This document shows, in pieces, positions 6,825 to 51,927 of a DNA stretch of 64,000 nucleotides (the stretch's first letter is position 1; each line of letters opens with the position of its first letter). The position numbers and the translations under genes were made by a program. Below the pieces are notes generated by a model. That model was given only the letters and a program-made list of their open reading frames with translations, ran no database searches and had not been told where the DNA came from. Source of the DNA: Candidatus Lloydbacteria bacterium RIFCSPHIGHO2_02_FULL_50_18. Its GTDB lineage: Bacteria; Patescibacteriota; Minisyncoccia; Phycocordibacterales; UBA6899. Location of the stretch: contig MHLM01000001.1 of assembly GCA_001821395.1 (NCBI GenBank), positions 32,001 through 96,000 on the forward strand. Direction: 5' to 3'.

Positions 6825-8189
6825 ATGAATATCAACGCAATCACAAAGGCATATTTTATCGGAGTGGGAGGGATTGGTGTTTCCGCGATCGTGAGGCTTT
6901 TTGCGGGCAGGGGAATCATCGTTGCTGGATCGGACGGAACGTTTCCCGGTGCCGGCGCTCTTCCTTCAGGGCAGTATTTCGAGGGAGCAGACAGCAGTCA
7001 TGTTCCGTTTGACGCATCGGTTGTCATCTATTCGCCGGCGGTTCCTCCGACCAATGTTGAACGCATGCGCGCGGAAGAACTGGGGATTCCCACATTGTCA
7101 TATCCTGAGGCATTGGCGCTTGTGACGTCAGGCAGCGATACGATCGCGGTATCGGGAACGCACGGCAAGTCAACCACGACCGCACTGCTTGGAAAACTTT
7201 TTGAAGAAGGCGGCATGGATGCGTCAGTGATCGTTGGTGCGGAGGTTCCCGGCTGGGATCGCAATTATCACAAAGGTCGAGGAGATATGTTCATTGTGGA
7301 GGCATGCGAATACCGAAGGAATATGATGCACCTTTCGCCTCAGGCTATTCTGCTTACGAATCTTGAGCTCGACCACCCTGATTACTATCTTGATCTTGCC
7401 GATGTAAAGAGCGCATTCCGCGACTATATTAAAAAACTTTCCGGGGAAGATCTGCTTATTGTGAATAATGATGATGCAAATATTCGCGACGTGGTAAAAG
7501 GCTCAGATGCGATCATGGTGAGTTTCGGTGTGGGTGGCGGTGCAGATCTTATAGCGAGGAACATAAGAGAAGACGCGGCTGAACAATCATTCGAACTTAT
7601 ATGGAAAGGTACTTCAATAGGTGAGTTCTCAACGCCGCTCCCCGGTCTCTACAACGTCTACAACATTCTTGCAGCGACCGCAGTGTACCTTGCCTATGGA
7701 GGAAGTCGGGATCATATTCAGCCCGTGTTGACGACGTTCGTGGGCGTCGGAAGAAGATTTGAAGTCGTTGGCGAACTTGGTGCTGCTATCATCGTGTCTG
7801 ATTATGCGCACCATCCTACTGCGCTTACGGCGGTCGTTGATGCTGCGCTTTCACGCTACAGAGGAAAGAGTATCCTTACTGTTTTCCGTCCTCACCATCG
7901 CGAGCGTACGATCAAGCTGATGGACGAGTTTGTCGAAACCATGCTCGGTATTCCGCACTGTGTGCTTATCGAGATCTATGATGTCCCCGGGCGTGAAGAA
8001 AATACTCAGGTGAGTTCTCATGACATCATTGACCGCGTCTTCGCGCACGACCCGCAAAAAGATATTGTGTATGCAAAAGACCTTTCCGAAGCGGAAGGGG
8101 TCGTGAGGGGCAAAGCATCCCTGTTTGACGTCATTCTTATCGTCGGTGCGGGAGATGCAGATCAGCTTGCGAAGCGTCTTGTGTCGTAA
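6825..8189 (+). CDS. murC: UDP-N-acetylmuramate--L-alanine ligase
   Basis: Rossmann motif GVGGIGVSAIV and Mur-ligase P-loop GTHGKSTTTA. Confidence 0.9.
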   Translation: MNINAITKAYFIGVGGIGVSAIVRLFAGRGIIVAGSDGTFPGAGALPSGQYFEGADSSHVPFDASVVIYSPAVPPTNVERMRAEELGIPTLSYPEALALVTSGSDTIAVSGTHGKSTTTALLGKLFEEGGMDASVIVGAEVPGWDRNYHKGRGDMFIVEACEYRRNMMHLSPQAILLTNLELDHPDYYLDLADVKSAFRDYIKKLSGEDLLIVNNDDANIRDVVKGSDAIMVSFGVGGGADLIARNIREDAAEQSFELIWKGTSIGEFSTPLPGLYNVYNILAATAVYLAYGGSRDHIQPVLTTFVGVGRRFEVVGELGAAIIVSDYAHHPTALTAVVDAALSRYRGKSILTVFRPHHRERTIKLMDEFVETMLGIPHCVLIEIYDVPGREENTQVSSHDIIDRVFAHDPQKDIVYAKDLSEAEGVVRGKASLFDVILIVGAGDADQLAKRLVS

Positions 8190-48997: not shown

Positions 48998-49353
48998 TTT
49001 CGCCTCTAAAGGTAATTTTGAGCTCGATAAATAAGCCTTAAATATTGTGCGACACGAAGAGTTGAAAAAATACCTGTGAATATTCTCGGTATAGATATCT
49101 TTGAATGGACCCGTGACTATGCGGCGGGTGATGACACCGTCTCCGGTTCAAGATAACAGTTGTATAATGGTGGGATTGTTTCTTTCAAGAGAATTTGAAG
49201 GATGAATATGAAGGCACGGGATATCAAAGGTAATCGAGACGAAACCTGTGGCCGTACCGAGCCGTTCTCAATACAGCATTACGTCGCAAAAGATATATTG
49301 TGCGACGTGATGGCGTAAACAGGAAGAACCCAAGAGACGCCCACTTTCCACTC

Positions 49354-49397
49354 ACCTTCTTTATGTGGGTCTCTGACCTTCTTTATGTGGGTCTCTG
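49354..49397. repeat. Perfect 22-bp tandem duplication (accttctttatgtgggtctctg ×2) spanning the NUDIX stop codon
   Basis: Read directly. Copy 2 (49376-49397) encodes the last six codons plus the stop. Copy 1 (49354-49375) lies just downstream of the gene. Confidence 0.9.
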
Positions 49398-49880
49398 TTT
49401 GTTCCGCAAATAAAGTGTCTCTACTTCAACAATTTTCTGTTCGAGCACAATGTCGTCTTTTCCGAAGAGAAATGCTGCTTTGAATTTTTTACGACCCAGT
49501 AAAAGCGGGAACCAGTAGATATCGTCCGGCCACATATCAGCAAAAGGGATCGCATCGACGTGAAACCATTCCGGTAGCATCTCCTCGCTTTCTTCAGGCT
49601 CGCCAACAAAATTATCAGTACGATACACATGCACCTCAAGGAGAACGGGGTCTCCCTCAAATGCAAAATCGATGATCCCAACTTTCTCAAGATCTTTAAC
49701 GAGGATTCCCGCCTCTTCACGCATTTCTCGTATGGCACCTTCCTCGATAGTTTCTCCGGGTTCAACCTTTCCGCCAAACCCATTCCATCTCCCCTTTCCG
49801 AATCCCCGCTTTTTCATTCCTAGCAACACACGCGGATGCTGATGGAGAATGCATAGCGTTAATACTTTTTTTTGATCCAT
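49383..49880 (-). CDS. NUDIX hydrolase
   Basis: Nudix box GKVEPGETIEEGAIREMREEAGI. Confidence 0.8.
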   Translation of the reverse strand: MDQKKVLTLCILHQHPRVLLGMKKRGFGKGRWNGFGGKVEPGETIEEGAIREMREEAGILVKDLEKVGIIDFAFEGDPVLLEVHVYRTDNFVGEPEESEEMLPEWFHVDAIPFADMWPDDIYWFPLLLGRKKFKAAFLFGKDDIVLEQKIVEVETLYLRNKQRPT

Positions 49881-49882
49881 TG

Positions 49883-49953
49883 TCGGGCTAGGCAGAATCG
49901 AACTGCCGCCACATGCACCCCATGCATGTAGACTACCACTATCCGATAGCCCG
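49883..49953 (-). tRNA. tRNA-Pro (anticodon GGG)
   Basis: I folded it by hand on the minus strand. Acceptor cgggcta/tagcccg pairs 7 of 7. The D-arm ggat-agtggta-gtct has G·U at both ends. Anticodon arm catgc-atGGGgt-gcatg. A 4-nt variable loop. T-arm ggcag-TTCGATT-ctgcc. Discriminator A. CCA is not encoded. Its 3' end is 2 nt from the NUDIX ATG. Confidence 0.65.
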
Positions 49954-50397
49954 ATTATTTACTTGTTATTGTACACTGAAATCTCAAACTGGTGCATGCA
50001 CACTATCCCGATATTGCATGTAGACGAGCACTGATACAATAGCCCGAAACTTATTACGTTATTTTACACTCATCACGAACCTCGTGCATGCACACTATCC
50101 CGATATTGCATGTAGACGAGCACTGATACAATAGCCCGATGTTTACTCTTCTACTTCAATTCTCCACTTGATGCACCCCATGCATGTAAGCATCCTCGCG
50201 CAAAGCCGCGAGACCATGGGATGCTTTCTCGATACAGAACGAGCCACCGGCTCGCGCTCTGCACAACTCGCTTTCTCCGCAAAGCCTCCGAAATCGATCT
50301 CGAGTAGACGAGCACTGATACGATAGCCCGAACTTACTTTGTTATTTTACACTCATCGCGAACCTCGTTGCGTGCACACTCTATCCCAAAATGCACT
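49954..50397. repeat. Tandem array of roughly 93-bp units (three or more, diverged), each holding a partial copy of the tRNA-Pro 5' half plus a roughly 60-bp tail
   Basis: The 57-bp core gtgcatgcacactatcccgatattgcatgtagacgagcactgatacaatagcccga occurs exactly at about 49993 and 50084. Degenerate copies sit at 50302-50397 and within the tRNA itself. The inter-core segments are homologous to one another. Confidence 0.8.
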
Positions 50398-50493
50398 AAA
50401 AATCAAAACTCATTCGGCAAACCGAATGAGTTTTGAGTATATCAGAATTGAAGAAATTTGCGACGGACACGAACGAATGTCGATCTCCACACA

Positions 50494-50823
50494 TCAGGCA
50501 TTCTTTTTTGTAAACGATGCTCCCCAATTGTGCATCACCTTGAGTATGGGCTCGAGTGATCGTCCGAGCGCAGTAAGCTTATATTCAACTCGAGGTGGAA
50601 TTTCCGGATATACCTTTCGGTCAACTATCCCATTTTTCTCGAGGTTTCCCAGTCTCATGGAAAGAGTTCTGGGAGAAATACCAATAAGTGACCGTTCAAG
50701 CTCACTAAAGCGCCGAACACTGCCAACAAGTTCACGTAAAACAAGAACCGTCCATTTACTTCCAATGACCTGAAGCGTTGCTTCTACCGGGGAATGCACT
50801 ACTTTTTTTGAGTATTTTTTCAA
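50494..50823 (-). CDS. HxlR-family transcriptional regulator
   Basis: Winged HTH (SPVEATLQVIGSKWTVLVLRELVGSVRRFSELERSL…RKVYPEIPPRVEYKLT). It probably starts at TTG or GTG. Confidence 0.8.
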   Translation of the reverse strand: MKKYSKKVVHSPVEATLQVIGSKWTVLVLRELVGSVRRFSELERSLIGISPRTLSMRLGNLEKNGIVDRKVYPEIPPRVEYKLTALGRSLEPILKVMHNWGASFTKKNA

Positions 50824-50970
50824 GTTGAATTTCGAGAACTTCTCTTATGAAATTTTATAATATGGGAAGCATATGACTTAACGCTTTCGGTGTCAAGAAA
50901 ACCCATCTTTTTTGAGTTTCGATGTAATCCTTATTACGCAAATGTAAAAAGCAGTATGAAGGAGAAGGAG

Positions 50971-51189
50971 TCACTCTACTCCATGGTTCGACTGTTCAAT
51001 CACGCTTTCGGTGTCTGCCCCAGTAAAGACCTGTATTTTCCCGCATTTTCTACATTTTACCTCTACACGACTCGCTGCATCAGTAAGTATCCCCTTTCCA
51101 AGAAGCTTATTACAGACAGTACATTTCAAATCATTAAGACATTTATCATCCATGGAACCAAATTTATTGTTTTGAACAAAAAAACTCAC
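50971..51189 (-). CDS. Mu Com-like zinc-ribbon protein
   Basis: LKCTVCNKLLGKG…VEVKCRKCGKI matches the Com-family pattern C-x2-C-N-K-L-L…[IV]-K-C-x-[RK]-C. GTG start. Confidence 0.55.
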   Translation of the reverse strand: MSFFVQNNKFGSMDDKCLNDLKCTVCNKLLGKGILTDAASRVEVKCRKCGKIQVFTGADTESVIEQSNHGVE

Positions 51190-51235
51190 TCGCGTGAGCC
51201 TCTTGGGCTTCCTTGATATTTACCCGCCAATGGTT

Positions 51236-51463
51236 TTAGCAAATAGTTATCCACGATGTGCTTCGGCCGCACCCTTTGTTGACGCTTTGGTCTTCATAAG
51301 ACTCTCGATCTGAGAACTTATTTCTGAGTTCAGATAAATCGAGCTTTGTGCGGTACATACAATCTTCGATAAATCTTACCACTAATGATACGACCTTAGG
51401 GGCATACCTGTCAATCAATTCAATAGATGCACCCCTCAAACTTCCCACCTCGCGCCCAATCAT
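51236..51463 (-). CDS. Possible small protein (75 aa), unknown function
   Basis: The ORF has an ATG start and fills the gap between the Com-like gene and the membrane-protein gene. There is no homology evidence. Confidence 0.25.
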   Translation of the reverse strand: MIGREVGSLRGASIELIDRYAPKVVSLVVRFIEDCMYRTKLDLSELRNKFSDRESYEDQSVNKGCGRSTSWITIC

Positions 51464-51477
51464 TCGATAAAGCGGGG

Positions 51478-51927
51478 TCAGATCCCCTTGCAGCCGATCG
51501 AAGGTTTATAGCCCCTCGCCAGTGCATCGTCTTTTGATGAGAACCAGATCTTATTTTCTTCCTTGATCCGTTTAACCCCGGCGCACCAAGGGAGATAGTA
51601 GGTCTTTCCAGACCTTGAACCGACGTACATTCCGAAGCTATTTGACTCACCACCTCCCAGAGACAACGCACTATTCTGGGATAGCGAAAGAGGTTCCCTC
51701 GTAGATGAATTATCTACAGTGTCAAAATTTGCAATCGCCGCAGCTTTTCCTGTGGTATCAATGATCCGCAGGCCCTCTGCCTTCGTTGCGCCAATCATGG
51801 AAGAGCGGCCGATGGAAAAAGACCCGATCGCGACCAATATAAGCAGCAAGAACACAAAGGTGTCCTTTGTGAGATCGGGATAATGCTTGATTTTTTGAAT
51901 GGTTTCTGTTAGTCTCATGACACACAA
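51478..51927 (-). CDS. Membrane-anchored protein with a small C-terminal Ada-like/'YxxPxC…GYxP' domain
   Basis: N-terminal TM. The C-terminus (GKTYYLPWCAGVKRIKEENKIWFSSKDDALARGYKPSIGCKG) resembles the Ada metal-binding fold but has only 2 Cys. Confidence 0.5.
   Translation of the reverse strand: MCVMRLTETIQKIKHYPDLTKDTFVFLLLILVAIGSFSIGRSSMIGATKAEGLRIIDTTGKAAAIANFDTVDNSSTREPLSLSQNSALSLGGGESNSFGMYVGSRSGKTYYLPWCAGVKRIKEENKIWFSSKDDALARGYKPSIGCKGI

Follow-up and report, generated by a model that had tools for sequence, protein, structure and literature searches.

The repetitive tRNA-Pro/tRNA-His cluster of Photobacterium phosphoreum consists of tandem tRNA genes and pseudogenes, and partial tRNA duplications lie at rearrangement hot spots of chloroplast and mitochondrial genomes, where they are attributed to slippage. 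To our knowledge, no conserved promoter context has been described for these organellar repeats. The archaeal split and tri-split tRNA genes of Nanoarchaeum and Caldivirga have complementary leaders and bulge-helix-bulge motifs, involve a splicing endonuclease, and occur without an intact copy. Partial tRNAs accumulate at integration hot spots, and in the tandem islands and tycheposons of Prochlorococcus, att copies that usually represent the 3′ part and lie downstream flank foreign DNA with an integrase (10.1101/2020.12.28.424599). The group I introns in tRNAs of Patescibacteria are located in the anticodon loop, match Rfam RF00028, and self-splice (PMC13011429).

Here, a stretch of 64,000 nucleotides (the window) was analyzed, in which an intact tRNA-Pro(GGG) gene is preceded by an array of partial copies of its own 5′ part, arranged as a partial unit P0 and the units U1, U2, and U3. 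The proteins encoded at this locus (OGZ05155.1 and others) belong to Rifle-aquifer MAGs of Candidatus Lloydbacteria. Like the Photobacterium phosphoreum cluster, the array has head-to-tail repeats derived from tRNA-Pro, non-functional copies, and signs of unequal recombination; however, the repeats of that cluster are whole genes or pseudogenes, whereas here a tRNA origin can be demonstrated only for positions 1-32 (or 1-41). With the organellar repeats it shares short tandem repeats containing tRNA fragments and a lineage-variable copy number, and with the archaeal split tRNAs it shares separate 5′ tRNA pieces with promoter-like sequence before each. A split tRNA gene was ruled out, since an intact tRNA is present, the 92-nt-type units end before the anticodon, and the organism is bacterial. 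As in Prochlorococcus, several partial tRNA copies lie beside the intact gene at one locus, but in this array it is the 5′ part that has been duplicated, on the upstream side and with native upstream sequence in between, and no integrase was found in the scanned ORFs (10.1101/2020.12.28.424599). An insert in U1 resembles the Patescibacteria introns in being an intervening sequence within a tRNA-like sequence (PMC13011429). Unlike those introns, it is 115 nt long, is located at position 27/28 of a pseudo-copy without a 3′ half, and matches no Rfam family, and a group I intron was therefore rejected. What is new is that such tandem partial tRNA duplications are conserved and variable in copy number across Lloydbacteria-related genomes; in addition, the array is part of what is presumably the tRNA leader, and a conserved insert is present in one copy.

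Results

The tRNA-Pro(GGG) gene and its neighbors

The HxlR stop codon, a promoter-like site, a hairpin, P0, U1, U2, U3, and the tRNA follow one another in this order on the minus strand (Table 1). The tRNA-Pro(GGG) was the sole tRNA called by ARAGORN in the 64-kb window, scored 53.9 bits (E 3e-10) against the Rfam tRNA model, and is 100% identical between the window and L004, the nearest different species. Its discriminator A73 is followed by the two nucleotides CA and then by the ATG of the NUDIX gene at 49880. A preliminary description of this DNA had placed a well-formed tRNA 2 nt before the NUDIX start codon, which was confirmed by ARAGORN, by Rfam, and by the position of the ORF; the tRNA-finder run that it proposed returned tRNA-Pro(GGG) at the claimed site on the minus strand.

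Table 1. Features of the tRNA-Pro(GGG) locus in the 64-kb window. Units and their parts are given in tRNA orientation (minus strand, from high to low coordinates).
Feature	Position	Strand	Evidence or remarks
HxlR-family gene, stop codon	50494		Upstream of the array
Candidate promoter of the whole array	50464-50436	-	GTCGCA 50464-50459, 17-nt spacer, extended -10 TGATATACT 50444-50436; consensus match
Terminator-like 15-bp hairpin + T run	50403..50436	-	Downstream of the HxlR-family gene; kept in L004
P0, 67-nt partial unit	50397-50331	-	No 5′ part; degenerate palindrome motif; TAAAAT tail
U1, 192 nt	50330-50139	-	27-nt 5′ part + 115-nt insert + 17-nt copy + 33-nt tail
U1, 5′ part, 27 nt	50330-50304	-	
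U1, G+C-rich insert, 115 nt	50189..50303	-	TAC repeated at both flanks
U1, 17-nt copy	50188-50172	-	Exact copy of tRNA positions 25-41, true anticodon loop included
U1, tail, 33 nt	50171-50139	-	Palindrome motif absent; decayed -10 TAGAAG (TAGAAT in L004)
U2, 92 nt	50138-50047	-	nhmmer E 2e-19; palindrome motif 50112-50084; TAAAAT tail
U3, 93 nt	50046-49954	-	nhmmer E 9e-18; palindrome motif 50020-49992; TACAAT tail
Internal -10-like hexamers	50349-50344; 50066-50061; 49973-49968	-	TAAAAT; TAAAAT; TACAAT; from sequence
Functional tRNA-Pro(GGG), 71 nt	49883..49953	-	ARAGORN (49882-49953) and Rfam RF00005
NUDIX hydrolase gene	49383..49880	-	Pfam PF00293, 4e-16; directly downstream of the tRNA

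The distance from the tRNA 3′ end to the next start codon is 2-5 nt in the window, L004, L037, and L039 (junctions at 49878-49885, 2190-2200, ~7140-7150, and ~7686-7700, respectively). In these four genomes, such a short gap points to a tRNA-mRNA co-transcript and to a nearly leaderless mRNA after tRNA 3′ processing; thus, the NUDIX gene and tRNA-Pro(GGG) are presumably co-transcribed. Several smaller differences were seen around this junction. The CCA is encoded in the tRNA gene of L004 but not in that of the window, and an additional NUDIX paralogue lies in L004 (2196-2606) between the tRNA and the orthologue of the window NUDIX gene. The window lacks this paralogue, and its remaining NUDIX gene, which encodes a shorter N-terminus, has its start at the equivalent position. 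The 3′ end of the NUDIX gene is overlapped by two perfect 22-nt tandem copies of ACCTTCTTTATGTGGGTCTCTG (49354-49397).

Organization of the repeat units

The units U2 and U3 are each composed of three pieces. The first, CGGGCTATTGTATCAGTGCTCGTCTACATGCA, differs from tRNA positions 1-32 by four substitutions and one extra base (84% identical). The second is an anticodon-stem-like palindrome with a foreign loop, CATGCA-ATATCGGGATAGTG-TGCATGCAC, and the third is a tail with GTGTAAAAT or GTGTACAAT located 13-14 nt before the next CGGGC. The first 56 nt of U2 and U3 are 100% identical, while their tails have diverged, and the tail of U3 is the sequence directly upstream of the functional tRNA. The tails of U2 and U3 are paralogues of the window P0 (z = 15 and 10.5) and of the P0 of L004. 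Two exact occurrences of the 32-nt 5′ part were found against 0.00 expected in shuffles, and nothing similar to the 5′ part was present elsewhere in the 64-kb window. Tandem Repeats Finder did not report the array.

Neither ARAGORN nor the Rfam tRNA model called a tRNA in the upstream units. Both the T arm and the 3′ acceptor strand are missing from these units, and the last copy is the sole tRNA. The possibility that they are whole decayed tRNA copies was rejected: a hint of T-arm similarity (GGTTCG) was seen in MAFFT and nhmmer alignments, but the similarity of the unit tails to the tRNA 3′ half was no better than that of shuffles. Judged on the sequence, the demonstrably tRNA-derived portion of the 92-nt units is therefore limited to positions 1-32 and the GTGCATGC strand. 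At E <= 10, the Rfam search of 49000-51500 returned the tRNA and one chance lncRNA match, and nothing more.

The preliminary description had reported three or more units of about 93 bp. The repeats are real, but only two have the 93-nt period and the third is interrupted by the insert; the description was right about the array and missed the U1 insert, the palindrome motif, and the conservation across related genomes. Its statement that the locus is not a CRISPR array holds, because the spacers (the tails) are homologous to each other and to P0 (z = 15-17) rather than unique and unrelated.

The D-arm part of U1-U3 shows changes that are common to these three units and specific to the window (GGATAGTGGTAG to GTATCAGTGCTCG). 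On the opposite (+) strand, they give rise to sites resembling an extended -10, TGATACAAT or TGATACGAT, at 50033-50041, 50124-50132, and 50316-50324, and on the sense strand they allow CGGGC to pair with GCTCG in a hairpin. These sites and this hairpin may be a coincidence.

Arrays in related genomes

The 1451 nt from HxlR to NUDIX are 100% identical in L001 and L003, which are independent ENA and JGI assemblies, and the ENA contig L016 has the same array with the same copy number, by reading. Since independent assemblies agree, the array and its copy number are reproducible and no assembly artefact. The contigs L002, L014, L015, L012, and L013 end inside the array or inside the tRNA; with several independent short-read contigs breaking there, the repeat evidently fragments assemblies of these genomes.

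The same kind of array, with one to three 5′-part copies, precedes the same tRNA in five other related genomes, so that at least one unit is retained in all six genomes having this tRNA type. In L004, the M23 peptidase and NUDIX proteins are 92% identical to those of the window and the DNA is ~86% identical. The other loci were found via the neighboring M23 peptidase gene: Lloydbacteria RIFCSPLOWO2_02_FULL_54_12 (L019; M23 57% identical), with one unit; Parcubacteria GW2011_GWA2_47_7 (L037/L038; 69%), with three; GCA_043737875 (L039; 69%), with two units and a partial one; and L041 (63%), with two units that read as identical and whose 5′ parts match the true tRNA. L004 has the terminator, P0, and U1 with its insert as in the window, followed directly by the tRNA without U2 and U3. 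Its only copy is thus of the U1 type, with the boundary after position 41, and the 5′ part of this copy matches the true tRNA without a difference.

With a profile made from eight units, all copies of the window, L004, L019, L037, and L039 were recovered and nothing else in the loci searched; L041 was outside the profile search, and reading of its sequence identified the units there. Full units of the window, L019, L037, L039, and L041 begin with CGGGC and leave the tRNA after CATGC(A), and they then resume with GTGCATGC, the 3′ strand of the tRNA anticodon stem; the loop between the two strands is partly conserved. The resulting motif, TCGGGATAG-N-GTGCATGCAC or TCGGGATAG-N-GTGCATGCACGA, is identical at 21 of 22 positions between the window and L019, compared with ~67% for coding DNA. 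The CGGGC at the unit start is invariant across genomes, while the D-arm part decays. Units within a genome are more alike than units of different genomes, and tails are genome-specific. The array is therefore head-to-tail, with the same boundaries and a variable copy number, as in a tandem repeat with unequal recombination.

Other candidate loci did not extend this set. The tRNA-Pro(GGG) of L018 differs in sequence, and no clear units were seen there. In L017, which is the closest species representative among the genome contigs, synteny is lost beside the locus and no tRNA is found there, and L005 and L008 (NUDIX ~70% identity) are not syntenic and have no tRNA in the locus.

Inserts were also observed at other places in the relatives. 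The middle unit of L037 has a different insert of ~118 nt in its D-arm region (7378-7495, minus strand), and the fold of this unit B, insert included, is somewhat better than that of shuffles (z = -2.4). On the downstream side of the tRNA, L012 (61-184; the contig starts inside the tRNA and shows the downstream side only) and L041 (7700-7951, minus strand) have inserts of ~125 and ~250 nt, which are bounded by direct repeats of the tRNA 3′ end (TCTGCCTAGCCCGAC and following bases) and contain inverted T-arm fragments.

Promoter-like elements and the array as a probable leader

The site TGnTATAYT is located upstream of the array in 6/6 genomes, 105-482 nt before the true tRNA, and in four of them GTCGCA precedes it at a distance of 17 nt. 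Extended -10 sites of this kind precede other genes of the window. The extended -10 of the window adjoins the 5′ arm of the terminator-like hairpin, so a transcript from there would begin inside the hairpin. In L019 and L039 the terminator comes first and the promoter follows it, and L037 is without the hairpin.

No terminators were predicted inside the array. With a conserved promoter-like site before it, the tRNA after it, and no internal terminator, the array is probably transcribed as a leader. From these consensus matches, we infer that the array is most likely transcribed as a long 5′ leader of 100-480 nt, which RNase P would remove from the tRNA. The preliminary description had noted a conserved tail with a -10-like TAAAAT/TACAAT element, and such hexamers are indeed present in P0, U2, and U3. 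In the window, L004, and L037, their distance to the following CGGGC is 13-14 nt, and they may act there as extra starts; the units of L039 have no well-placed -10.

The insert in U1

The U1 insert is 96.5% identical to that of L004, with 4 differences over 116 aligned positions. In the comparison of the window with L004, this places it in the top 4% of 118-nt windows, where it ranks with the best-conserved coding segments, against ~86% for the surrounding genome and ~70-75% for P0 and the tails. It is known in these two sequences only. The insert is non-coding: a 1-nt indel between the window and L004 breaks the conservation of the candidate ORFs, and a small ORF in U1 was rejected on this ground. 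The search against Rfam at E <= 10 gave no match to the insert, and the predicted fold of the insert region was no better than that of shuffled sequence (z = -0.67).

No further copies of the insert were present in the 64-kb window, and its exact 20-23-mers had 0 occurrences in genome contigs and 0 in viral contigs. The lone metagenome-contig match was attributed to chance, the contig being high in GC on reading. No terminal inverted repeats are visible at the insert. A MITE or IS element was rejected, since the insert is single-copy in the 64-kb window, none was seen in the contig scans, and the inserts of other loci are unrelated. The inserts of the window, L037, L012, and L041 are mutually unrelated. 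Homology of the L037 insert to that of the window was not accepted: the match is marginal, with 16 of 1000 shuffles reaching its score (p about 0.016), and blastn found nothing.

Discussion

We consider it probable that the array consists of tandem partial duplications whose copy number is driven by recombination, and that it is transcribed as a leader and then removed by RNase P. The two break points, after position 32 and after position 41, are both within the anticodon stem, which in this tRNA contains overlapping palindromes and direct repeats (ACATGCATGGGGTGCATGT), making slipped-strand or template-switch events likely there. We infer that such events at the anticodon-stem hairpin would have generated the initial partial duplications, which fall into two types. 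Type 1 would comprise ~60 nt of upstream DNA and tRNA positions 1-32, giving the 92-nt period of U2, U3, and the relatives' units, and type 2 would comprise tRNA positions 1-41 and ~33 nt of upstream DNA, giving U1. Unequal homologous recombination and gene conversion between the 5′ parts would then change the copy number and homogenize the units within a genome. The preliminary description had suggested duplication of a promoter plus the tRNA 5′ half, which agrees with units made of the upstream region and the tRNA 5′ part and separated by native upstream sequence. Its suggestion of slippage, taken here together with unequal recombination, fits the copy number of one to three, the same boundary after CATGCA, and the likeness of units within a genome. 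As for the difference from L004, U2 and U3 were either gained in the lineage of the window or lost in L004, and either fits.

The same description had offered serial integration and excision of an element targeting this tRNA as another origin. Spelled out for this locus, the units would be scars left by an element that targets the anticodon-stem region and replaces the tRNA 5′ part, with the U1 insert as a remnant. The palindromic anticodon stem-loop is of the type used by tyrosine recombinases, and is said to have been described by Williams in 2002 as their classic core site. The accumulation of partial tRNAs at integration hot spots has a precedent (10.1101/2020.12.28.424599), the U1 insert is flanked by a repeated TAC, and the 125-250-nt inserts downstream of the tRNA in relatives are bounded by att-like repeats of its 3′ end. 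The att-like scars in L012 and L041 make an element targeting this tRNA reasonable for the 3′ side. However, the sequence between the 5′ parts of U2 and U3 is homologous to the native upstream region, and integration scars would need an identical 60-nt "remnant" to be left every time. When the long ORFs between 33.5 and 64 kb, ~14-16 kb either side of the array, were scanned with Pfam, no integrase or transposase appeared among the housekeeping genes and a few ORFs without a match; those identified included a histidine kinase, several aminoacyl-tRNA synthetases, ScpA, ScpB, cell-wall genes, ribosomal proteins L27 and L9, a Peptidase_S41/PDZ protease, CorA, MarR, and RND efflux genes. The check for a nearby integrase was likewise negative among the called genes of the relatives' loci. 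No attP or element match was obtained in viral, phage, and plasmid collections: blastn against phages and plasmids gave no match to the array, and the palindrome motif had 0 occurrences in viral contigs. Four viral-contig matches to the anticodon stem-loop were set aside, one being a tRNA-Pro(GGG) with otherwise unrelated sequence and the others one non-tRNA sequence in three contigs. Given that the inserts of the different loci are also unrelated to one another, serial integration was dropped as the origin of the 5′-side array; we judge it highly improbable, and element targeting is not supported for the 5′ array.

Tandem partial duplication leaves some observations unexplained. The persistence of the array and the conservation of the motif, the CGGGC, and the U1 insert suggest some constraint. 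A neutral relic should be lost easily, because direct repeats of 27-33 nt recombine, and yet 6/6 genomes retain a copy. The units may instead form a functional cis-acting leader, in which selection maintains the 5′-part mimics as well as the anticodon-stem-like hairpin and its conserved loop. The mimics might compete for the 3′ acceptor or anticodon-stem strands of the tRNA during folding, or the quasi-palindrome (CATGCA-TATCGGGATAGAG-TGCATG) might bind a protein, which would tune the maturation of tRNA-Pro(GGG) and the expression of the co-transcribed NUDIX gene. In favor of this, genomes whose M23 peptidases are 57-92% identical share the motif and the CGGGC start, a spacing of 19-20 nt separates the palindrome end from the -10-like hexamer downstream of it in the window, L004, and L037, and the tails of the three L037 units are more alike than their 5′ parts. 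On the other hand, copy number and tails vary freely, and in P0 of both the window and L004 the motif has degenerated, with greater divergence of the motif in L039 and L041. The stem of the hairpin shows no variation and has the sequence of the anticodon stem of the tRNA, which gene conversion or common descent could explain, and it is thus uninformative on RNA structure. Folding of the units, as the preliminary description had proposed, gave a weak consensus fold (-6.7 kcal/mol) with no informative covariation, so that RNA structure is not supported. We therefore regard a selected cis-acting leader as rather unlikely. It is very unlikely that each unit is a small-RNA gene with its own promoter releasing tRNA-half-like RNAs, and that U1 yields a structured RNA of ~190 nt including the insert. 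The -10-like hexamers before CGGGC in three genomes, the conservation of the non-coding insert, the compatibility of all four L004 differences with its predicted fold, and the presence in it of GCATCCCATG, which is complementary to the anticodon loop region, are consistent with such genes. However, there is no terminator or defined 3′ end inside the array, the units of L039 lack usable -10 elements, the insert region folds no better than shuffles, and the insert occurs in only two sequences, with no Rfam family match and no convincing homologue in L037. A combined form appears quite unlikely, namely a selected lineage-specific RNA leader whose mimics and hairpin would either control folding, processing, or level of tRNA-Pro(GGG) and of the near-leaderless NUDIX mRNA on the same transcript or be released as tRNA-half-like sRNAs, with the insert as an undescribed structured RNA in one mimic.

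In practice, the array breaks short-read assemblies and could mislead the annotation of genomic islands or tRNAs. The usual interpretation of partial tRNA copies is that integrating elements left them behind; the tandem partial duplication favored here proposes a different origin, in which a palindromic anticodon stem would seed duplications on the 5′ side. Across a family-level group of reduced genomes with little spare DNA, the array has been kept while its copy number changed. If the motif or the insert is functional, the locus would exemplify a cis-regulatory leader derived from a tRNA in Patescibacteria.
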